Shown here: positions 2,790 to 50,606 of the stretch, in pieces
How positions within the stretch are numbered: position 1 is the first letter of the stretch
Layout: each line of letters begins with the position of its first letter
From: Candidatus Hadarchaeales archaeon
GTDB lineage: Archaea; Hadarchaeota; Hadarchaeia; Hadarchaeales; JAWBSP01
DNA length: 53,140 nt
Assembly (NCBI GenBank): GCA_038842485.1
Contig: JAWBSP010000007.1
Location: 1 to 53,140, forward strand
Reading direction: 5' to 3'
Translations under genes and position numbers: made by a program
Notes under the pieces: model-generated
What the model saw: the letters and a program-made list of their open reading frames with translations, nothing else
What the model was told of the DNA's origin: nothing
Databases searched by the model: none

Positions 2790-4420
2790 TTTCGAGGCTT
2801 CTTCCGGGAGCAGTCATTGAACGACCGGGGAGTTCGGTGGCAACCAAGACGGGGAGCTGGAGGCACATCAGGCCAGAGAGGAGGGAAAAACTCTCACCCT
2901 GCAGGAAGGCGTGTCCCATTGGAAATCACATCCCTCGGGCCCTCGATCTACTAGCCGAGGGAAAGCTCCAGGAAGCTGCCAAAGTTTTTGTTGAAACCAA
3001 TCCCTTCCCTGCCATCTGTGGGAGGGTCTGCTATCATCCCTGTGAGCAGGAGTGCAACAGGAAAGAATTTGATGAGCCCGTTGCCATCCGCCTGCTTGAG
3101 AGATTTCTGGGTGACCTGATTCAAGAGGAGGCTCGGCCCAGAAAACCTCCTTCCGATCCTGAGGTTGCTGTGATTGGCTCCGGGCCAGCCGGTCTTTCTT
3201 GCGCCTACCATCTCGCCAAGCGGGGGTACGGAGTGGTGGTGTTTGAGAAGAAACCGGTGATAGGTGGCATGTTGGCGGTGGGGATTCCAAAGTACCGCTT
3301 GCCGAGAGAGATTTTGGAGAGGGAGGTCAGGAGGCTAGAAGGAATGGGGGTGAAATTCCTGACGGGCAGGGAGGTGAAGGATCTCCGGGAGTTGAAGGAC
3401 TTCAAAGCGGTTTTCATCGGTGTTGGAGCAACCAGGGGTGTAGAACTGGGGGTTCCGGGCGAGGACGCCGAGGGGGTGTATCAGGGAATAGAGTTTCTTG
3501 AGAACCTCAACCTAGGGAAGGAGGTGAAGGTGGGGGAGAGGTGCTTGGTGATAGGTGGGGGCAACACTGCCGTGGACTGTGCGAGATGTGCGAGAAGGCT
3601 CGGCTGCTCGGTGACCATCGTTTACAGGCGCTCTAGGGAGGAGATGCCTGCCACCGAGGAGGAGGTGGAGGGTGCGCTGGCCGAGGGGGTTAAGATCGAG
3701 TTCCTTGCCGCCCCCGTTGCCATCCTCACGAAGGGTGGCCGGGTGAGTGGGGTGAGGTTCGTCAGGATGAAGCTAGGGCCGCCGGATGAGTCGGGCAGAA
3801 GACGTCCCATCCCCATCGAGGGCTCCGAATTCGAACTGCCGGCAGATTCCGTGATTGCAGCCATCGGCCAGAGACCGGATCTGAGCTTCCTTCCGCCCGA
3901 GATTGAGGTAAAGCATGGGAAAGTGGTTTGCGATGAGTGGGGAAGAACGTCCCTGAAGGGGGTCTTCGCGGGTGGAGACGTGGTGTATGGGTTGCCCGAG
4001 AGGGTCGCCGATGCGATCGGGTCCGGGAGAAGGGCGGCCGTAGCTATAGATTGCTACCTCAGCGGCAAGACACCAAAGGCCGAGGAGCCCTCGGAGAAGG
4101 TAGAGTTCAAGAACCTGAACCTAGCGTACTTCACCCACCTCCCCCGGACGGAGGTGCCCCAGCTCGGTGGCGAGGAGAGAATAAAAACCTTCAAAGAAAT
4201 CGAGGGGGGATTGAATGCCAGTGCGGCGAGGCAGGAGGCGGAAAGGTGCTTCAGCTGCGGCTTCTGTAACCAGTGCGACAACTGCTGGGTTTTCTGCCCG
4301 GAGATGGCCGTTCAGAGGGAGGACTCAGAATATGAAATCGATTTGGATTTCTGCAAGGGGTGCGGTCTTTGCGCTGCCGAATGTCCAAGGCGTGTAATAG
4401 ATATGGTTCCGGAGGGGTAG
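2786..4420 (+). CDS. 2-oxoacid oxidoreductase delta subunit with an inserted GltD/DsrL-like FAD/NADP(H) module
   Basis: TTG 2786 overlaps the porG stop. N-terminal [22 protein letters not shown] is PorD-like. The middle is a GltD fold ([22 protein letters not shown]). The C-terminus is a 2x[4Fe-4S] domain ([26 protein letters not shown]). Confidence 0.85.
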
Positions 4421-7578: not shown

Positions 7579-9525
7579 ATGATGTCCGTTTGGGTGGTTG
7601 AGGATCCCCACGAGAAGGACGTCTTCTGGCCGAGCGAGGAGATGAAGAGGAGGGCTTGGGTTTCCGATCCCCGAATTTACGAGGAGGCGGCCAAAGATCC
7701 GGTCGCTTTCTGGGAGAGGCTTGCTAGAGAGGGTTTGGAGTGGTTCAAACCTTGGGAAAAGGCACATGAGTGGGATCCACCACACGCGCGGTGGTTCGTG
7801 GGGGGGAAGATCAACGCAAGCTACAACGCGCTCGACCGCCATGTTAAATCGGGCAAGGGGGAAAAGGTTGCGCTCACGTGGATTCCGGAGCCCCCAGCGG
7901 AGAGTCCTCTCAAACTTACCTACCGGGAGTTGTGGGAACTCACCAACAAGTTCGCCAACGCTTTGAAACAGCTTGGGGTTAGGAAGGGGGACCGGGTGGG
8001 TATCTATCTGCCCATGATTCCCGAGCTATACCCCGCAATCCTGGGATGTGCTAGAATAGGGGCGATCCACACGGTCGTTTTTTCGGCTTTTTCTCCCGAA
8101 TCCTTGCGCGTGCGGCTTGAGGATTCTGAGGCCAAGGTCCTCATCACCGCTGACGGGTACTACCGGAGGGGCAAGATCGTGAATCTGAAGGCAAACGCTG
8201 ATGAGGGTATCAAGGGGACCAAGGTTGAAAGGATGGTGGTGGTGAGGCGGGCGGGCAACCCAGTAGATTGGACGCCCGGTAGGGACCTCTGGTGGCACGA
8301 GTTGATAGAAAAGGCTGACTCCTACTGTGAGCCCGAGTGGATGGACAGCGAGGACATGCTATTTCTCTTGTATACTTCCGGAACCACCGGTAGACCCAAG
8401 GGAGTCATCCACACCACTGGTGGCTATCTAACCCAGGCCTACTGGACGACTAAATGGGTTTTTGATCTGCACGACGACGACCTCTTCTGGTGCACCTCAG
8501 ACATAGGGTGGGTCACGGGGCACACCTATGCCTGTTACGGCCCGCTGTTGAATGGGGCGAGCTTTCTCATCTACGAGGGGGCGCCCGACTACCCCACGCC
8601 GGACAGGGTATGGGAAATAATTGAGAAGAACAGAGTAACCGTCTTCTACACGGCCCCCACCCTCATCAGGATGCTTGCGATGCTGGGGGATGAATGGCCA
8701 AAGAAACACGATCTCTCCAGTTTGAGGCTTCTGGGAACGGTTGGGGAGCCCATTGACTACAAGGCTTGGATGTGGTATTTCAAGGTTGTAGGCGGGGGGA
8801 GATGCCCAATTACCGACACTTGGTGGCAGACCGAAACGGGTGGAACTCTCATAATGTCCCTCCCCGGCATAGGGCCCTTCATTCCCACCGTGGCGGGAAA
8901 AAGCTTTCCTGGAACGAAACACACCATTGTGGACGAAGAAGGGAAGGAAGCGGACGTTGGATATTTAGTTCAGGTTCCCCCCGTTCCTCCAGGCATGTTT
9001 AGAGGACTCTGGAAAGCGGAGGACAAATATAGGGAGACCTACTGGGAGAAATACGGTTACAAGTTCTACTTGGCGGGCGATGGCGCTCTGCGGGCTCCGC
9101 ACGGTTGCATCAGGGTCACCGGGAGGGTGGATGATGTGATGAAGGTGGCTGGGCACAGGCTTGCCACGGCTGAGGTGGAAGATGCCGTGAACCATCATAG
9201 GTGGGTCTCAGAGTGTGCGGTTGTGCCGAAACCCCATGAGGTAAAGGGTGAAGTGCCAGTAGTCTTTGCCGTCCTCAAACCGGGGGCGACGCCCTCCCCC
9301 GAGCTGTCGGAGGAGATAAAAAAATTGGTTAGGAGCACCATCGGTCCGATCGCCACCCCAGAGGAGGTCATTTTTGTTCCAGACCTCCCCAAAACCAGAA
9401 GTGGCAAGATCATGAGGAGGATACTGAAAGCGCTCCTGACGAACTCACCCGTGGGAGATACCACTACCCTAGTGAATCCAGAGGTTGTTGAGAAGCTCAA
9501 ACAGCTTGTGGGATACAAGGGCTAG
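7579..9525 (+). CDS. acs: Acetyl-CoA synthetase (AMP-forming)
   Basis: YTSGTTGRPKG, DTWWQTETGG and PKTRSGKIMRR motifs. Confidence 0.95.
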   Translation: MMSVWVVEDPHEKDVFWPSEEMKRRAWVSDPRIYEEAAKDPVAFWERLAREGLEWFKPWEKAHEWDPPHARWFVGGKINASYNALDRHVKSGKGEKVALTWIPEPPAESPLKLTYRELWELTNKFANALKQLGVRKGDRVGIYLPMIPELYPAILGCARIGAIHTVVFSAFSPESLRVRLEDSEAKVLITADGYYRRGKIVNLKANADEGIKGTKVERMVVVRRAGNPVDWTPGRDLWWHELIEKADSYCEPEWMDSEDMLFLLYTSGTTGRPKGVIHTTGGYLTQAYWTTKWVFDLHDDDLFWCTSDIGWVTGHTYACYGPLLNGASFLIYEGAPDYPTPDRVWEIIEKNRVTVFYTAPTLIRMLAMLGDEWPKKHDLSSLRLLGTVGEPIDYKAWMWYFKVVGGGRCPITDTWWQTETGGTLIMSLPGIGPFIPTVAGKSFPGTKHTIVDEEGKEADVGYLVQVPPVPPGMFRGLWKAEDKYRETYWEKYGYKFYLAGDGALRAPHGCIRVTGRVDDVMKVAGHRLATAEVEDAVNHHRWVSECAVVPKPHEVKGEVPVVFAVLKPGATPSPELSEEIKKLVRSTIGPIATPEEVIFVPDLPKTRSGKIMRRILKALLTNSPVGDTTTLVNPEVVEKLKQLVGYKG

Positions 9526-44380: not shown

Positions 44381-46264
44381 TTAGAGCAGGGTGAGGGTCC
44401 TGAACGCGATTCCGCCGACGAAAACCGCGAGGATTATCCTGAAAAGGGCAAAGGAAGTGGCCTTCTTAAATCCAACCTCCTTGACCATCGCAGCATAGGT
44501 CGAGATGCAGGGCAGATAGAGCATCGAGACCAGTCCCAGAACAATCATCTGTTGTGCGTTGAGAACTGAGGAGAAATTGGTCGTTCCGAGCACCGTGGCG
44601 AGCAGGACAAGGATGAGCTCTTTCCTGAGTATTCCCATGATCAGAAGGGCACCGGTTATGGCTGGGAGGCCTAGCCATTTCTCGGTGACGGGGCTGAGAA
44701 CCTTGCTCAGGGTGTATATGCTGCCGGTTTCGAAAAGAGTTGTCAGCACCACGTTTCCTAGGATTACTAGAGGCAAGGCGAGCTTCAGGAAATCCACGGT
44801 TCTTCCCCAAGTTTGCTTTAGCACCGTCCGGAGATGGGGGATTCTATACGGTGGCATTTCCATTATCATACCCATGGGCTCCCCAGGGAGGATTCTCGAG
44901 AGCAAACGGCCGATGAGCAGGATAATGCAGAAATCAAGGGCGTAGAGCAGGAGAGCGATCCTAATCCCCAAAAACCTCCCAACCAGACCCAGGATGATCA
45001 CAGAAGTTGCGGCGCAGGGAACCATGCTGACGATCAGTGCAGCGAGAATCTTTTCCCTTTCGGTTTCCAGAATCCTGCATCCTAGGCAGGCGGGCACATC
45101 GCAACCGAAACCCAACATGGCCGGGATGAAGGCCTTCCCATGTACCCCAACCCTGTGCATGAGGTTGTCCATGAGGAAGGCCGCGCGGGGAAGGTAGCCC
45201 GAATCCTCCAGCAGGTTCAGGAGAAAATAAAACGGCAGGATGTAGGGCAGGGCGACGGAAGCCGCGGCAAGCAGTCCTCCCAAAACGCTTCTCGGTAGCA
45301 AGGGGAGCCCTTCACTCTTGGAGGACAGCCGGTCAAAGATCACAGCGAACTTTCCCCCAATCTGGAAGACGATGTAGAACAGAGATGCGACGACTAGGGC
45401 GAGGATGAGGTAGGCGGGGACGGGGTGGGTGGTTATCCTCTCAATCTTGCGAGAAAGGGTTTCCCTTGCCGGGTGGAAGGACTGAACCTCCCTTGCGATC
45501 CGGCTGGCGAGACTGTACCTCTCTGAGGCAACAACGAGGGATGCCTGTTCTCCGTGCGCTCGCTCGAGTTCGCTTCTCATCCTTCTCACCAGCCGCATGA
45601 TTGCAGGTTGCCGCTCTGTAACCAATTTTTCGATTTCCTCGTCTCCCTCCAGCAGTTTGAGCGCGACCCATTTGGCTGGGTACTTTAGATCCGGAATTTT
45701 ATCGAGGAGCTTCTCAAGCCTTGCGCACTTGCTCTCGAGCTCTGGGCCGTATTTGGGAAAACTTGCTCTCTTGCCGCAGCTTTCAAGGGTCCGCTCCAGT
45801 AGCCGGTGGAGGCCCTCCCCCCTGATGGCCACGGTGGGAACTACCGGTACGCCAAGGAGCTCTTCCAGTTTTCTGGTGTTGATCTCTATTCCCTTCTTTT
45901 GCGCCATGTCGATCTGATTCAGGGCAACCACCACCGGTGCCTCCATCTCGAGAAGCTGCAGGGTGAAGAAGAGGTTCCTCTCGAGGGAGGAGGCATCCAC
46001 CACGTTTATCACCACGTCCGGCCTCTCGATGGCGATGTATTCGCGCGAGATCCTCTCCTCCAGCGTGAAGGCGCTGAGCGAGTAGATTCCCGGGAGATCC
46101 AGTATGTCGATGGTTCTCCCGCGAAAGTGAAGCGTTCCCTCCGCCTTCTCGACAGTCTTCCCGGGCCAGTTTCCGATGTGCTGGTGGAGACCGGTCAGCT
46201 GGCTGAAGATGACCGACTTCCCCACATTAGCGTTTCCGGCGAGGGCCACCCTCACAACGGGCAA
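44381..46264 (-). CDS. feoB: Ferrous iron transport protein B
   Basis: GNANVGKS, NWPGKTVE, DLPG, LEDSGYLPR, GFGCDVP. Confidence 0.95.
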   Translation of the reverse strand: MPVVRVALAGNANVGKSVIFSQLTGLHQHIGNWPGKTVEKAEGTLHFRGRTIDILDLPGIYSLSAFTLEERISREYIAIERPDVVINVVDASSLERNLFFTLQLLEMEAPVVVALNQIDMAQKKGIEINTRKLEELLGVPVVPTVAIRGEGLHRLLERTLESCGKRASFPKYGPELESKCARLEKLLDKIPDLKYPAKWVALKLLEGDEEIEKLVTERQPAIMRLVRRMRSELERAHGEQASLVVASERYSLASRIAREVQSFHPARETLSRKIERITTHPVPAYLILALVVASLFYIVFQIGGKFAVIFDRLSSKSEGLPLLPRSVLGGLLAAASVALPYILPFYFLLNLLEDSGYLPRAAFLMDNLMHRVGVHGKAFIPAMLGFGCDVPACLGCRILETEREKILAALIVSMVPCAATSVIILGLVGRFLGIRIALLLYALDFCIILLIGRLLSRILPGEPMGMIMEMPPYRIPHLRTVLKQTWGRTVDFLKLALPLVILGNVVLTTLFETGSIYTLSKVLSPVTEKWLGLPAITGALLIMGILRKELILVLLATVLGTTNFSSVLNAQQMIVLGLVSMLYLPCISTYAAMVKEVGFKKATSFALFRIILAVFVGGIAFRTLTLL

Positions 46265-46265
46265 C

Positions 46266-46868
46266 TCAGTCCCTCCTGAGCAAAATTTTTTCAGCCACTC
46301 CTCTCCCTAGTGCGAGTTCCGTTCCACGCACGGAAATCAGAAGGGGCCCCCTGAAAAGCGAGGATCGGAGAACTCTAACCTTTGTTCCTGGAGTCAGTCC
46401 CATGGCGGAGAGTCTCTCGCAGAGTCCTCTTCCGCCCACCAATCTCTCGACCACGCCTTCCTCCCCCTCCAACAAAGCCGTCAGTGGAAGCAATCTCTTT
46501 GGTACGTGCAGCTTCTCCCCCTCGGTTTTTCTGTGGATTGCCCTTTCGAGCTCGTCGGGCAGGTGGTGCTCCAACTCGCACGCCTGCTCGTGAACCTTGG
46601 CCTCAGGTATCCCCATCTGTCTGAGGAATCTCTCGGCCACTCGATGCTTTCTCAGAACCTTTCTCCCGATCTTCTCTCCCTTAGCCGTTAGGGAGACTTC
46701 CTGATAGGGGACATAGGAGATGTAACCCAACTTGAACAGCTTCTTCAGCATTTGCGTTACGCTGGCCGGGGCAATACCGAGAACCTTGGAGAGATTACCG
46801 GTGGTCAAGGGGCGGTTGCTCTCCTTTAAGCGGAAGATCGCTTCAAGGTACTCTTCAATCCTCTCCAT
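46266..46868 (-). CDS. DtxR/IdeR/MntR-family metal-dependent repressor with a C-terminal FeoA domain
   Basis: EEYLEAI, ASVTQMLKKL, RKHRVAERFL, ACELEH; RLSAMGLTPG FeoA domain. Confidence 0.92.
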   Translation of the reverse strand: MERIEEYLEAIFRLKESNRPLTTGNLSKVLGIAPASVTQMLKKLFKLGYISYVPYQEVSLTAKGEKIGRKVLRKHRVAERFLRQMGIPEAKVHEQACELEHHLPDELERAIHRKTEGEKLHVPKRLLPLTALLEGEEGVVERLVGGRGLCERLSAMGLTPGTKVRVLRSSLFRGPLLISVRGTELALGRGVAEKILLRRD

Positions 46869-47025: not shown

Positions 47026-47235
47026 TCAAGAGGTGGAGAGAAGTCTGAGCTCTTCTAGGTTCCTCTGGTAGTCCTCCTCTTTTATTTTTCCGATGATCAG
47101 ACCGGCGTGGACGATTACGATTTCTCCTTCCCTGACCTCCTGCACAGCCACCGCTCTCTTTTCGATTCCCCCGAAGTCCACCACGACCTTTTGACCTTCT
47201 ACTTTTTTGACCCTACCCGTCACGCCCAAGCACAT
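47026..47235 (-). CDS. hypC: [NiFe]-hydrogenase maturation chaperone HypC
   Basis: MCLGVTGRV, VDFGG, VIVHAG. Confidence 0.92.
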   Translation of the reverse strand: MCLGVTGRVKKVEGQKVVVDFGGIEKRAVAVQEVREGEIVIVHAGLIIGKIKEEDYQRNLEELRLLSTS

Positions 47236-48340
47236 CCAAACCACCGAATTTTGCCCAAATGTTGCAAGGCCCCTCCGCCGAAACCATGCAAGGGCCGATG
47301 GGAGAGGCAGGGGTACAGACCCGCTGGAAGAGCTGGCAGTCCGCCGGGGTTGCCGCCCCCACTATGACCTCCCCGCACCTGCATCCGGGGTAATCGTTTT
47401 CGGGGGGAGGCAGGGGGTCAAGGCCAAAGTGCTGGAAGGCATCAAAGTCTTTGAACTTCTCCCTCAGGAGCAGACCGCTCTCCGGGATGACCCCAAGCCC
47501 TCTCCAGCAGGAATCGGCAACCTCAAAGGTCTGCGAGATCTTTTCCTGTGCGGCCAGATTGCCATCCCAGCTGACGGCTCTTTTGTATTCGATTTCCACC
47601 CCCGCCTTCCCTTCCACCCTCATCCGTACGATCCGCAGAATGGCCGCCAGCACATCCAGCGGCTCGAATCCTGCCACTACGGTTGGAAGGCCAAACTCTT
47701 GGGGAAGGAATTCCCAGGCCTTTGCACCTATAACGGTCGAAACATGTCCCGGCGCTATGATTCCGTCGAGCGGAAGCAGTCCCCTTTCTTGGTGATAGCG
47801 GATGGCGAACCTGGCCGCTGGTGGTGTCAGTTTGACCAAGCTCATCAGCTTCAGGTTCCGAGGGACCTCGCCACTGAGAAGCAACGAGGAGTAAATGGGT
47901 GCGAGGGTTTCAAACCCGATTCCGAAGAAGAGAGCCTCCCCTCCCAATTTCGAGGCATCCTCGCTCGCCTCAAGAAAACTGTAAACCAGCTTCACTCTCG
48001 CCCCACTCGCCCTGGCTTCCTCCAGGCTCCGGCATCCGTCCACGGGTTTCAGCGCCGGTAGCCGGTAGGAATCCCCATAGGTGTAAACGGTTACTCCCCC
48101 CAGAGCGAGACGGATGGCCTGTTCCACATAATAAGAGGGGGTGACGCAAACCGGGCATCCTGGTCCGGCCACCAGCTCGACGTTTGGGGGAAGCAGGGTC
48201 CGCAGGCCGAAGTGAACGGTGGTCCACTCGTGGGTCCCGCAAAAGTTCATTATCTTGAAGCGTCCGGATCCCGCTAGCGAGCGTATTCGGGAGCAAAGAT
48301 TTCGGGCTAGCTCCCGGTCCTCCCTCAGTTCTCTCAGCAT
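47213..48340 (-). CDS. hypD: [NiFe]-hydrogenase maturation protein HypD
   Basis: CGTHE, GPGCPVCVTP, GFET, PGHVS, PIGPCMVSAEGPC; ATG 48340. Confidence 0.95.
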   Translation of the reverse strand: MLRELREDRELARNLCSRIRSLAGSGRFKIMNFCGTHEWTTVHFGLRTLLPPNVELVAGPGCPVCVTPSYYVEQAIRLALGGVTVYTYGDSYRLPALKPVDGCRSLEEARASGARVKLVYSFLEASEDASKLGGEALFFGIGFETLAPIYSSLLLSGEVPRNLKLMSLVKLTPPAARFAIRYHQERGLLPLDGIIAPGHVSTVIGAKAWEFLPQEFGLPTVVAGFEPLDVLAAILRIVRMRVEGKAGVEIEYKRAVSWDGNLAAQEKISQTFEVADSCWRGLGVIPESGLLLREKFKDFDAFQHFGLDPLPPPENDYPGCRCGEVIVGAATPADCQLFQRVCTPASPIGPCMVSAEGPCNIWAKFGGLDVLGRDG

Positions 48341-49335
48341 ATCCTGGGGATGGGATCGCCGGCAGGCATGGGCACCACCCTCCTCCCCCCCACGCTTGTC
48401 CTGAGCGCGACCATCCCGGGATGCTCCTCCGTCACCTCCCCTATTAGAGCGGCTCTCTCCCCCCTTCGGGTTCTCCTGATCGCCTCGAGCACTTTCTCGG
48501 CATCCCCGGGGCGAACACCCATCACCACTCTTCCCTCGCACGCCAGGGTCAGCACATCCAGACCTAGCAGATCGCAGAGGTTCCTCACCTCTTCCGAAAC
48601 GGGAAGCAGGCTCTCCTCCAGCTCTATGCCCACGCCTGACTTTTCCGCCAAATCGTTCAGGGCCGCGGCCAGACCTCCTCTTGTGGGGTCTTTCATGGCG
48701 GTGACCTCACCGGCCCGCATGGCAGCCTCGACCACCTCTAGGACGGGCGCGGCATCGGATTGAATGGGCCCGAACCCATACCTGCAGGCAAGGATGCAGG
48801 CCCCATGCTCCCCGATGGTGCCGCTGATGAGAATTTTGTCCCCAGCTCTCAGACCGGAGTTCTTGACAACTCTCTCTGCAAGCCCCACACCCGTGGTCGT
48901 TATTACAGGACCGTCGACGCCGTTTTTCTCCGCGACCTTCAGGTCCCCGGTGATGATAGGAACCTTCACCTCAAGGGAGACTCGGTTGATCGATTTGCAG
49001 ATTTCCAGCAAGTCCCTTTTCTCCATCCCCTCCGGCAGAACCATGGAGCACGCCATGGCTAGTGGTCTGGCACCCATCACCGCAAGGTCGTTAACCGTCC
49101 CGGAGACGGCTAGGCTGCCTATGTTCCCGCCTGGGAAGAAGGTGGGCCTCACCGTATAGGAGTCGGTGGTCAGCACCAAGCTCTTTCCCTCTATCTCCAC
49201 CGTGGCTCCATCCTGAAGCTCGTCCAACCCAATCTCCCCAGCTCTCCTCAGCGACAGCTCCTTCAGTACGAGTTCCCGAATGAGCTCCGACATTAACTTC
49301 CCGCCGGCCCCATGAACCCAACTTATCCGCTCCAC
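48334..49335 (-). CDS. hypE: [NiFe]-hydrogenase maturation protein HypE
   Basis: HGAGG, TTDSY, GTVNDLA, KDPTRGG, C-terminal PRIC; GTG 49335 with a GGAG SD. Confidence 0.95.
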   Translation of the reverse strand: MERISWVHGAGGKLMSELIRELVLKELSLRRAGEIGLDELQDGATVEIEGKSLVLTTDSYTVRPTFFPGGNIGSLAVSGTVNDLAVMGARPLAMACSMVLPEGMEKRDLLEICKSINRVSLEVKVPIITGDLKVAEKNGVDGPVITTTGVGLAERVVKNSGLRAGDKILISGTIGEHGACILACRYGFGPIQSDAAPVLEVVEAAMRAGEVTAMKDPTRGGLAAALNDLAEKSGVGIELEESLLPVSEEVRNLCDLLGLDVLTLACEGRVVMGVRPGDAEKVLEAIRRTRRGERAALIGEVTEEHPGMVALRTSVGGRRVVPMPAGDPIPRIC

Positions 49336-49394: not shown

Positions 49395-49667
49395 TTACTT
49401 TTTCAGTCCCAGGCTTGCCAGCCAGAGGATCAACACAGGGATGAACATCAGCAAACCCAGTAGCGCCCCCGACTCCACCCAACCCTCCGTGGCGACGCTC
49501 AGGAATTCTCCTCCCTCCTTCCACCACCCTATGAGATGGTCGACCAGAATCATCAGCGTGGCGCCCCAGAGCATCAGGGAGAGGAAGCCAAGTTGGTACC
49601 TGCCCCCCAGCGCGAACTTAGCAGCAGTTGCGGCGATTGCCAGCAGCGCAGTGGTTACGAGCCACAT
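49395..49667 (-). CDS. Uncharacterised small membrane protein (3 TM), paralog of its upstream neighbour
   Basis: 90 aa; LWGATLMILVDHL; ATG abuts the upstream stop. Confidence 0.8.
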   Translation of the reverse strand: MWLVTTALLAIAATAAKFALGGRYQLGFLSLMLWGATLMILVDHLIGWWKEGGEFLSVATEGWVESGALLGLLMFIPVLILWLASLGLKK

Positions 49668-50000
49668 CTACTTCCGCGTGAGTACCCCCAATCTCGGTCC
49701 AATCCTTGCCCTTTCTGCTATTTTTAGGTCAACGAGCACCATTCCCGACCAAACGGCAAGGATGAGAAAAGTCATCGGGACCCCCACCGTCAACATTTCG
49801 GGCAGGACCTCATGAATGCCGGCGGTTAGGAAAGGTGGGTAGGGGACTATTTCGCCGTGTGCAAGGTGCTCGATGGCTAGCATGAGGACACCCCCCCACA
49901 GCAGGGCGTTGAGCCAGCTCACTTTGAGCTTTTCTGGAAACTTCCGTGAAAAAGCCGTGGTCAGAATCGCCAGCCCCATCGGGACGAGGAAGCATGCCAT
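49668..50000 (-). CDS. Uncharacterised small membrane protein (3 TM), candidate metal permease subunit
   Basis: 110 aa; MACFLVP N-terminus; LWGGVLMLAIEHLAHGE; TATA box about 25 bp upstream. Confidence 0.82.
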   Translation of the reverse strand: MACFLVPMGLAILTTAFSRKFPEKLKVSWLNALLWGGVLMLAIEHLAHGEIVPYPPFLTAGIHEVLPEMLTVGVPMTFLILAVWSGMVLVDLKIAERARIGPRLGVLTRK

Positions 50001-50003
50001 CCG

Positions 50004-50031
50004 GTATTATTTTTTACTATTTAAATATTAC
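50004..50031. promoter_or_regulatory. NikR-type operator overlapping a TATA box
   Basis: GTATTA-N16(AT-rich)-TATTAC, the same 6-16-6 geometry as the E. coli NikR site GTATGA-N16-TCATAC. Minus-strand TTTAAATA at 50018-50025 lies inside it. nikR is divergent. Confidence 0.8.
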
Positions 50032-50198
50032 AGTCAAGCCACGAGCGAGGCACTCAAGCACGGGACAAGACTGTAGCACAACCCTCGGCTCCTCGAACCG
50101 CGCAAACGTTGACCGGTGTTTCTGGAGTCTATTCCGGAGTTCATCTAGTTAGCAAATCCGAACGTTGGTTGCTATCTTTCCCCTGCATAAGAAATACG

Positions 50199-50606
50199 AT
50201 GGAAAAGCTGACTCGGGTGAGCCTGACCCTGTCCGAGGATCTTCTGAAAGAGCTTGACGAGTTCCTTTCTAGGACAAAATACGCGAGCAGGTCGGAGGCC
50301 ATTAGGGATGCCCTCCAAGCCTTCCTGTCCGAGCAGAGACAGTTGAGGGGGGAGAAGGGGGAATGTGCCGGAGTTGCCATCCTTCTTTACGACCACGAGA
50401 CCCCCGGCTTGGTGGATAAGCTTCTGGACCTTCAGCATTCAGCGGGGGGCAGAGTTATGGGCAGCCACCACATCCACTTGAGTCCTGAGGAGTGCCTCGA
50501 AACGATTGCCCTGAAGGGGGAGGCGGGCGAGCTTGGGGAGCTTGTCACCAAGATGGGGGCTCTGAGGGGGGTCAAATTTGCCAAGTTCGTTCGAGTGAAG
50601 GGCTGA
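50199..50606 (+). CDS. nikR: Nickel-responsive transcriptional regulator NikR
   Basis: RHH domain RVSLTL...SRSEAIRDA; Ni site QH...HIHL...CLE; ATG 50199. Confidence 0.92.
   Translation: MEKLTRVSLTLSEDLLKELDEFLSRTKYASRSEAIRDALQAFLSEQRQLRGEKGECAGVAILLYDHETPGLVDKLLDLQHSAGGRVMGSHHIHLSPEECLETIALKGEAGELGELVTKMGALRGVKFAKFVRVKG

Follow-up and report, generated by a model that had tools for sequence, protein, structure and literature searches.

A NikR-associated pair of small paralogous membrane proteins from a Hadarchaeales archaeon as a probable nickel uptake permease

Hydrogenases, CO dehydrogenase, methyl-CoM reductase and urease all depend on nickel, and so does the nickel-pincer cofactor. How does an archaeon obtain the metal when its genome holds a [NiFe] hydrogenase and none of the familiar importers is recognised in it? 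The question is raised by a locus in 53,140 nucleotides of DNA from a Candidatus Hadarchaeales archaeon (NCBI GenBank assembly GCA_038842485.1, contig JAWBSP010000007.1, positions 1 to 53,140), the whole of which is referred to here as the window. Two small open reading frames (ORFs), ORF-A and ORF-B, lie there next to a divergent nikR gene and are followed by hydrogenase maturation genes. The large subunit of the [NiFe] hydrogenase is encoded on another contig, and profile searches of the 943-kb, 88.9% complete assembly returned no match to CbiM (PF01891), NicO, HupE_UreJ or SBP_bac_5 (PF00496). A first-pass annotation, made from the letters of the window, had proposed that the two proteins form an ATPase-independent permease, or membrane metallochaperone, for nickel or cobalt. 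The present analysis supports the permease interpretation. ORF-A and ORF-B probably constitute a new NikR-repressed, ATPase-independent, two-subunit nickel uptake permease, a reading to which a probability of about 0.6 is given; complex formation, metal binding, transport and its direction are what we infer from comparison of sequences. A NikR-controlled nickel importer is a known kind of system, and it is the protein family and its architecture that are new. The parts of the locus on which the reading rests are these:

49668..50000 (-): ORF-A, 110 aa; three transmembrane helices; N-terminal Met-Ala-Cys; cluster of E44-H45-x-x-H48-x-E50 and E68
49395..49667 (-): ORF-B, 90 aa; three-helix paralog of ORF-A; invariant W34, G35, D43 and W82
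50004..50031 (no strand assigned): NikR-box-like operator GTAATAT-N14-ATAATAC, with an AT-rich TATA-like element inside it; its end lies 3 nt upstream of the ATG of A
50193..50606 (+): nikR, divergent from ORF-A; nickel-responsive ribbon-helix-helix repressor (NikR_C, 1e-21; RHH_1, 5.5e-8; NCBIfam NikR models down to 2.1e-34)

The stop codon of ORF-A is followed directly by the ATG of ORF-B (spacer 0 nt), and the intergenic region between nikR and ORF-A measures 192 nt.

Control by NikR is indicated by the promoter. As the first-pass annotation had noted, a TATA-like element lies inside a NikR-type operator at 50004-50031. Because the spacers of these operators are AT-rich and TATA-like, bound NikR would block the promoter. 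The operator with its TATA-like element stands only 3 nt from the start codon of A, so that the mRNA is probably leaderless and Met-Ala-Cys would be the true N-terminus of the protein. Other loci were searched with the motif GTRNYAC-N13-15-GTRNYAC, derived from the 12 loci in which nikR is adjacent; the consensus draws in part on what we take to be the archaeal NikR-box, inverted GTxxxAC half-sites about 14 bp apart. The search covered the region upstream of the pair in 61 non-redundant loci, with 1220 length-matched windows from the same loci as controls. Sites with at most one mismatch were present in all 12 nikR-adjacent loci, a circular result in that the motif was derived there, and in 21 of the 49 loci without nikR nearby (18 of them perfect), against 11 of 1220 control windows. 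The proposed NikR control is thereby extended to loci where nikR is not a neighbour. The operator in the window matches a local form, GTAATAT-N14-GTAWTAC, which stands before single-gene homologs of the family (described below), and it also matches the same-genus locus L001. At the equivalent position L001 has a site with one mismatch, and L006, L007 and L031 have perfect palindromes. Boxes before the single-gene homologs have at most one mismatch in 4 of 8 cases and at most two in 7 of 8. Contigs of a strain of about 93% similarity, from two hot-spring runs labelled metatranscriptomic but probably of DNA, can be aligned with the window up to exactly position 50031, the outer edge of the operator; a search of sequencing runs listed none of RNA that contains the locus. 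Over 50031-50283 this strain has 115 other letters replacing 251, and the alignment resumes inside nikR. As a separate observation, contig C13 of genome G000, outside the window, carries, at about positions 8944, 10773 and 25185, three palindromes with NikR-type half-sites and a spacer of 4-5 nt (GTGTTAC, then TATA or TATGG, then GTAACAC or GCAACAC).

The proteins themselves belong to no characterised family that could be found. Pfam and NCBIfam gave no match to ORF-A or ORF-B at E≤1, profiles of the A and the B family matched no PDB sequence at E≤10, and the protein atlas returned only unnamed 'hypothetical' clusters. The earlier statement that the two are not recognisable as NikMNQO, NiCoT, HupE/UreJ or NikABC therefore holds at the level of these four resources. 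Homologs are nevertheless numerous. A phmmer search of 1.84 billion representatives returned 297 clusters (50% identity) at E≤1e-3, 113 of them at E≤1e-10, and word-seeded searches gave 1097 A-type (E≤0.01) and 193 B-type 90%-clusters. A further 2380 90%-clusters have lengths of 128-408 aa and are mostly bacterial forms of A with a long cytoplasmic loop. Nearly all homologs are named 'hypothetical protein' in their sources. Carriers among the listed matches include Hadarchaeales, Freyarchaeota, Omnitrophica, Moraniibacteriota, Gracilibacteria, WOR-3 and Aenigmatarchaeota, and a set of 80 loci adds Bathyarchaeia, Methanomassiliicoccales, Archaeoglobaceae, Dehalococcoidia and Clostridia. Anaerovorax odorimutans DSM 5092 has the pair (locus L077). 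Judged by sequence, A/B is a large unnamed family in many oxygen-avoiding archaea and bacteria. That the ORFs are spurious is ruled out by the thousands of conserved homologs. The literature yielded no description of the family, subscription journals and supplements being beyond reach. In Zhang 2009 (PMC2667541) only Nik/CbiMNQO, NikABCDE and NiCoT are detected in archaea, and a 2024 paper (PMC11247825) gives NiCoT, UreH, HupE/UreJ and ABC systems as the known nickel importers.

A and B are related to each other and nearly always occur together. The first-pass annotation had described a gapless alignment over the first ~45 residues; BLASTP aligns only 23, gapless and weakly (A 24-46 with B 23-45, 8/23 identical, E 8e-4), a shorter extent than the one claimed. 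The paralogy itself stands, since profile-profile alignment with hhalign covers 86 columns at 96.9% probability (E 2e-10), which marks ORF-A and ORF-B as true paralogs. A B-type gene adjoins the A-type gene in 77 of the 80 loci, in the order A>B in 29, B>A in 26 (one ambiguous) and divergently in 22. Two of the three exceptions lie at a locus edge, and the third has an ORF in the B position that clusters with the family. A profile hidden Markov model (HMM) scan found natural fusions in 7 of 150 representatives (P0251, P0290, P0309, P0311, P0315, P0352 and P0380); behind the A part these have a distinct B domain at the C-terminus, in which a short charged linker replaces the first helix of B. 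P0390 is likewise an A-B fusion, and P0391 looks like a read-through that keeps the first helix of B. Adjacency and natural fusion together suggest that A and B act as one unit and form a heteromer.

In other genomes of the class there is also a third subfamily, of about 105 aa, that is encoded by a single gene. Its N-terminus is Met-Val-Cys, it has no B partner, and at the end of helix 2 it joins the Asp-His of B with the downstream His-Gly-Glu of A. Usually nikR is divergent and adjacent, with a NikR-box upstream of the gene. This subfamily is probably the homomeric form of the family. Examples are:

L084:3726-4046 (-): single-gene homolog
L087:3799-4110 (-): single-gene homolog
L088:3714-4037 (-): single-gene homolog
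L089:3788-4108 (+): single-gene homolog
L095:1333-1641 (-): single-gene homolog
L098:2425-2745 (-): single-gene homolog

In L087 the single-gene homolog is separated from sulfhydrogenase-like genes (Fer4_22, NAD_binding_1, Oxidored_q6) by an ORF of 112 aa without Pfam match (3461-3799, minus strand).

The conserved residues of A include candidate metal ligands, most of which were already singled out in the first-pass annotation. Columns invariant in 62 of 62 sequences are M1-A2-C3-F4-L5-V6-P7-M8, L30, L34, W35, G36, E44, H45, H48, E50, P56, L58, E68, G73 and W84; the invariant columns of B are L29, W34, G35, D43 and W82, with H44 present in 55 of 70. All the residues named earlier are present in the window (E44-H45, H48, E50, H63/E64, E68/M69 and Cys3 of A; D43-H44 of B). 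E44, H45, H48, E50, E68 and Met-Ala-Cys proved near-invariant across homologs, whereas H63 and E64 vary and H44 of B is not universal. The 80 loci had been seeded with peptide patterns that included the N-terminal motif; because of this partial seeding, the motif was re-checked on 385 A-type proteins from other searches. Met-Ala-Cys begins 322 of these; a different residue precedes the Cys in 13 others, an over-called start leaves the motif internal in 20, and 30 are without it. EHxxHxE is found in 336 and PF[LF]T in 364. Ahead of the Cys a small residue (Ala, Gly, Ser or Val) stands in almost every case, which would fit a need for removal of the initiator Met. A lipoprotein signal is ruled out as the explanation of this motif, with the Cys at residue 3 and no signal peptide.

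The arrangement of the proteins in the membrane is predicted from charge. Hydropathy gives three hydrophobic stretches in each protein, and AlphaFold2 of A, from a 62-row alignment, gives helices at 2-16, 27-47 and 62-99 (mean pLDDT 86.8, pTM 0.75), in agreement with the roughly three transmembrane helices per protein that had been counted before. As averages over the alignments, Lys+Arg number 2.7-5.2 per sequence in loop 1 and the C-terminus but 0.24 in loop 2, where Asp+Glu reach 4.4-4.9 and, in A, 2.6 His occur besides. By the positive-inside rule both subunits would have the N-terminus outside and the C-terminus inside, and they would therefore pack in parallel. The fusions agree with this topology, as a linker in place of the first helix of B is the sole layout compatible with A ending inside the cell. 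The conserved Met-Ala-Cys, E44, H45, H48, E50 and E68 of A would accordingly be placed on the outer face by the predicted topology. Prediction of an A+B complex (62-row alignment for each) scored 0.12 and 0.17 against a mark of 0.32, a result that weighs neither way on binding; the natural fusion P0311 was modelled at mean pLDDT 75.2 and pTM 0.55. Foldseek of the A model against the PDB gave a best match of E 4.1 and none at E≤0.001, and VIA-align in wide mode gave generic helical matches, the best being Z 7.4 on GPCR helix triplets, with Z 5.8 on Vtc1. No metal transporter stood out in these structure searches with the A model, from which it does not follow that the fold is new.

From these features a mechanism can be proposed. 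NikR would repress the A/B pair when nickel is plentiful. With the initiator Met removed, the N-terminus of A would probably be Ala-Cys, and it would lie on the outer face beside E44, H45, H48, E50 and E68, where helix 2 ends and helix 3 begins, and near D43 of B. This N-terminus, the Glu/His cluster and D43 may capture Ni2+ from outside, in analogy to the N-terminal metal site of NikM/CbiM, and the six-helix A/B unit may pass it inward down the membrane potential. In its own genome the pair would provide the nickel of the [NiFe] hydrogenase; hypE, hypD and hypC, which serve the maturation of that enzyme, come next.

Comparison within the class sets the family beside a known importer. In 65 genomes, the A profile matches 24 (three further single-gene homologs fall below threshold), CbiM is present in 13, NicO in 0 and NikR_C in 49. 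The A/B family and CbiM occur together only in G038, which has two nikR genes, one beside each. Of the 21 genomes with both nikR and a family gene, 14 have the two within ~1.2 kb of each other and two more within 4 kb, and five have nikR on another contig. CbiM is adjacent to or near nikR in six class genomes. The A/B family thus fills the same nikR-adjacent slot as CbiM does in sister genomes. Other neighbours of nikR are ZnuA-type or FmdE+Peripla_BP_2 uptake genes, hydrogenase-like genes and unrelated genes. In L105 (489-2351), L107 (3589-5470), L109 (3612-4487) and L110 (2040-2762), from class genomes with neither the family nor CbiM beside nikR, nikR stands beside ZnuA-type ABC genes or FmdE and Peripla_BP_2, and these may be further nickel uptake systems. 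NikL, NikN or CbiN accessory subunits are ruled out as the identity of the pair, as the A profile finds nothing in 12 of the 13 class genomes that carry CbiM.

The neighbours of ORF-A and ORF-B in the window are nikR, an FGGY kinase gene, hypE/D/C, a DtxR-FeoA regulator gene and feoB. The divergent nikR and the run of hypE-hypD-hypC on the same strand after 59 nt were both confirmed, and a Pfam domain scan of the neighbours in the window found no adjoining ATPase gene, as had been stated. The genes on the hyp side are:

48334..49335 (-): hypE, with AIRS and AIRS_C domains; GTG start at 49335, 59 nt after the ORF-B stop, preceded by a purine-rich Shine-Dalgarno-like element read from the sequence
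47213..48541 (-): hypD, coordinates of the longest ORF (PF01924 HypD, 4.9e-120); the true start lies further in, as the HypD match begins only at residue 78
47026..47244 (-): hypC (PF01455 HupF_HypC, 1.8e-15)
46266..46868 (-): DtxR-type metal repressor fused to a FeoA domain (Fe_dep_repress, Fe_dep_repr_C, FeoA)
44381..46264 (-): feoB, ferrous iron transporter (FeoB_N, 1.9e-63, with Gate and FeoB_C), given for context only

At 44381-46868 the DtxR-FeoA repressor gene and feoB follow hypC on the same strand, so that nikR to feoB form a single run of metal-related genes; the DtxR-FeoA regulator is probably outside the nickel unit.

Across the 80 loci all ORFs were clustered, and one representative per cluster was scanned against Pfam. 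An ABC ATPase is present within the fetched flanks of 21 of the 80, partnered with ZnuA/ABC-3, FecCD/Peripla_BP_2 or ABC-2. NikR follows with 12, a CsoR/RcnR-type sensor with 10, LarC with 9 and an ECF S-component with 8; quinolinate phosphoribosyltransferase and a methyltransferase (the largest cluster of its kind) reach 7 each, Fur 6 and FeoB 4. The loci with adjacent nikR come from at least six phylum-level lineages: Hadarchaeota, Aenigmatarchaeota, Brockarchaeota/Thermoproteota, Methanobacteriota/Thermoplasmatota, Bathyarchaeia and one Elusimicrobia bacterium. Homologs of the pair thus have a metal-related context (NikR, LarC, the CsoR-type sensor, Fur, ZnuA-type and FecCD-type ABC systems, FeoB), which had been named beforehand as a point to check. 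In the nine LarC loci the pair comes after the gene for this nickel-inserting enzyme of the nickel-pincer cofactor. The lar cluster of Lactobacillus likewise has its own nickel importer. In rumen and other Clostridia, L058 (3825-6738; likewise L056, L057, L063, L066, L067 and L072) carries on one strand an ECF S-component, LarC (PF01969), a CsoR-type sensor, A and B, a cluster that looks like a supply operon for the nickel-pincer cofactor. In Dehalococcoidia (L039:1663-7657; likewise L049, L053 and L071) the pair is preceded by genes for Fur, ZnuA, an ABC ATPase, a permease of the ABC-3 type and a methyltransferase, with nadC (quinolinate phosphoribosyltransferase) convergent downstream.

Several points weigh against uptake of nickel by the pair. 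The operator in the window is a degenerate copy with two mismatches, a level that 72 of 1220 control windows also reach, and a looser genome-wide scan found 28 sites with at most two mismatches in 943 kb. H63 and E64 of A are not conserved. N31 is the sole conserved polar residue along the membrane path of A while the ligands cluster on the outer face, so that binding or hand-over without translocation is conceivable. The 80 loci include close relatives, for example the rumen Clostridia, and their counts are of non-independent events. At 88.9% completeness the absence of known importers from the assembly is unproven. The anticorrelation of the family with CbiM (Fisher test, p=0.022) ignores phylogeny, and kin are not independent. 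Finally, the contexts with Fur, ZnuA/ABC-3, FecCD and FeoB leave room for other metals in some lineages, and in Clostridia the context of a CsoR-type sensor would also be in keeping with efflux.

The first of these contexts leads to the alternative that survives best, which is still unlikely: a divalent-metal permease of broader or other specificity (Fe, Co, Zn, Mn or Cu), for which control by NikR would be one of several lineage-specific arrangements. Besides the Fur, ZnuA/ABC-3, FecCD/Peripla_BP_2 and FeoB neighbours, it can draw on the DtxR-FeoA regulator and feoB downstream in the window, and on ligands (Cys, Met, His, Glu) that are not specific to nickel. However, NikR is a nickel-specific sensor and the most recurrent and widespread regulator of the pair, adjacent in 12 of 80 loci and with boxes at 21 of 49 further ones, and the linkage to LarC is nickel-specific also. 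Fur-family proteins, moreover, include nickel-responsive members.

Improbable as well, and placed second, is a role of the pair in efflux or detoxification of nickel (or nickel/cobalt), or as a bidirectional channel that serves different purposes in different lineages. The usual response of CsoR/RcnR-type sensors to metal is to turn on efflux genes. The Clostridial sensor (PF02583, 5.9e-27), with its His-rich N-terminus and Cys50/His75/Cys79 pattern, has a fingerprint that we take to resemble the InrS/CsoR sensors that de-repress efflux genes, and the small size of the proteins and the lack of an ATPase would suit a channel. The promoter argues otherwise, as NikR boxes over it imply that high nickel represses the pair, which is the reverse of what efflux would call for. 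The family, besides, takes the nikR-adjacent slot that CbiM and ZnuA-type uptake systems hold in sister genomes, the six loci with Fur neighbours and ZnuA-type uptake genes fit uptake too, the conserved ligands are predicted to face outward, and the own genome is without a known importer.

Least probable is a membrane-anchored nickel receptor, sensor or chaperone that does not translocate and hands the metal to another transporter or to the maturation of a membrane-bound hydrogenase: ligands on one face only, no obvious polar transmembrane path, the hyp genes after the pair in this genus and the ABC ATPase genes in the flanks of other loci speak for it, but hyp genes follow the pair in this genus only among the inspected loci, the nearby ABC systems come from at least three different complete families and so offer no constant partner, many loci have no transporter gene among their recurrent neighbour clusters, and an outward-facing site could not directly serve cytoplasmic Hyp proteins.

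A two-subunit nickel uptake permease, which is the reading preferred here, can be set beside the known systems. NikM/CbiM of the NikMNQO/CbiMNQO ECF transporters is likewise a NikR-associated nickel uptake component with a conserved extreme N-terminus, probably at the metal site in A as well. In NikM the N-terminal amine and His2 coordinate Ni. There is, however, no sequence relation (PF01891 has no match to A or B at E≤1); NikM/CbiM has about seven helices and each A/B subunit three, CbiQ (the T component) and CbiO (the ATPase) are absent from A/B, the N-terminus is Met-Ala-Cys and not Met-His, and A/B would be a heteromer of two paralogs. HupE/UreJ and UreH are closer in being small ATPase-independent membrane proteins linked to hydrogenase or urease, and A plus B, with about 200 aa and six helices, approach the size of HupE. 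HupE has signatures of His with Asp/Glu at helix ends, as A/B do. Unlike HupE/UreJ, A/B give no match to PF04955 at E≤1 (at HMMER level), are split into two three-helix paralogs or occur in the single-gene form, and have an N-terminal Cys. The NiCoT proteins (HoxN/NixA/NhlF, NicO; also RcnA-type efflux) share secondary nickel/cobalt uptake that is often NikR-regulated. Their HX4DH motif is a His and acidic signature in a transmembrane helix. They differ in having eight helices in one chain, and PF03824 does not match A/B. NikABCDE differs in that no SBP_bac_5 binding protein, permease or ATPase genes are present at the A/B locus. A precedent for transporters so small is offered by the mercury transporters MerT/MerF, with two to three helices and ~80-120 aa, which move a thiophilic metal by way of Cys near the outer face; A/B have no Pfam match to them at E≤1, a single Cys3 in place of Cys pairs, a nickel and not a mer context, and a paralog pair.

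A more far-reaching proposal, which is tentative, is that the family represents a wholly new and minimal class of metal transporter, built as a 3+3-helix heteromer or, in the single-gene form, as a homomer. Its processed N-terminus, through the amine and the thiolate of Cys3, would bind Ni2+ together with Glu/His at the subunit interface, and the ion would be imported without ATP. Such a transporter may serve many uncultured anaerobic archaea (Hadarchaeia, Bathyarchaeia, Brockarchaeota, Methanomassiliicoccales) and bacteria (among them Dehalococcoidia, Omnitrophota and Clostridia) as their main nickel importer, and may be an independent re-invention of the N-terminal nickel hook of NikM and Ni-SOD. 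Overall, the A/B family has thousands of members, is unannotated and stands under apparent NikR control in many lineages without known importers. If it does import nickel, an annotation gap would be closed for anaerobic archaea and bacteria, and a new metagenome marker for nickel demand would be at hand. The pair would also provide a very small two-gene module to feed nickel to heterologously expressed hydrogenases, and the invariant Ala-Cys at its N-terminus would offer for study a natural nickel-binding motif that is new.

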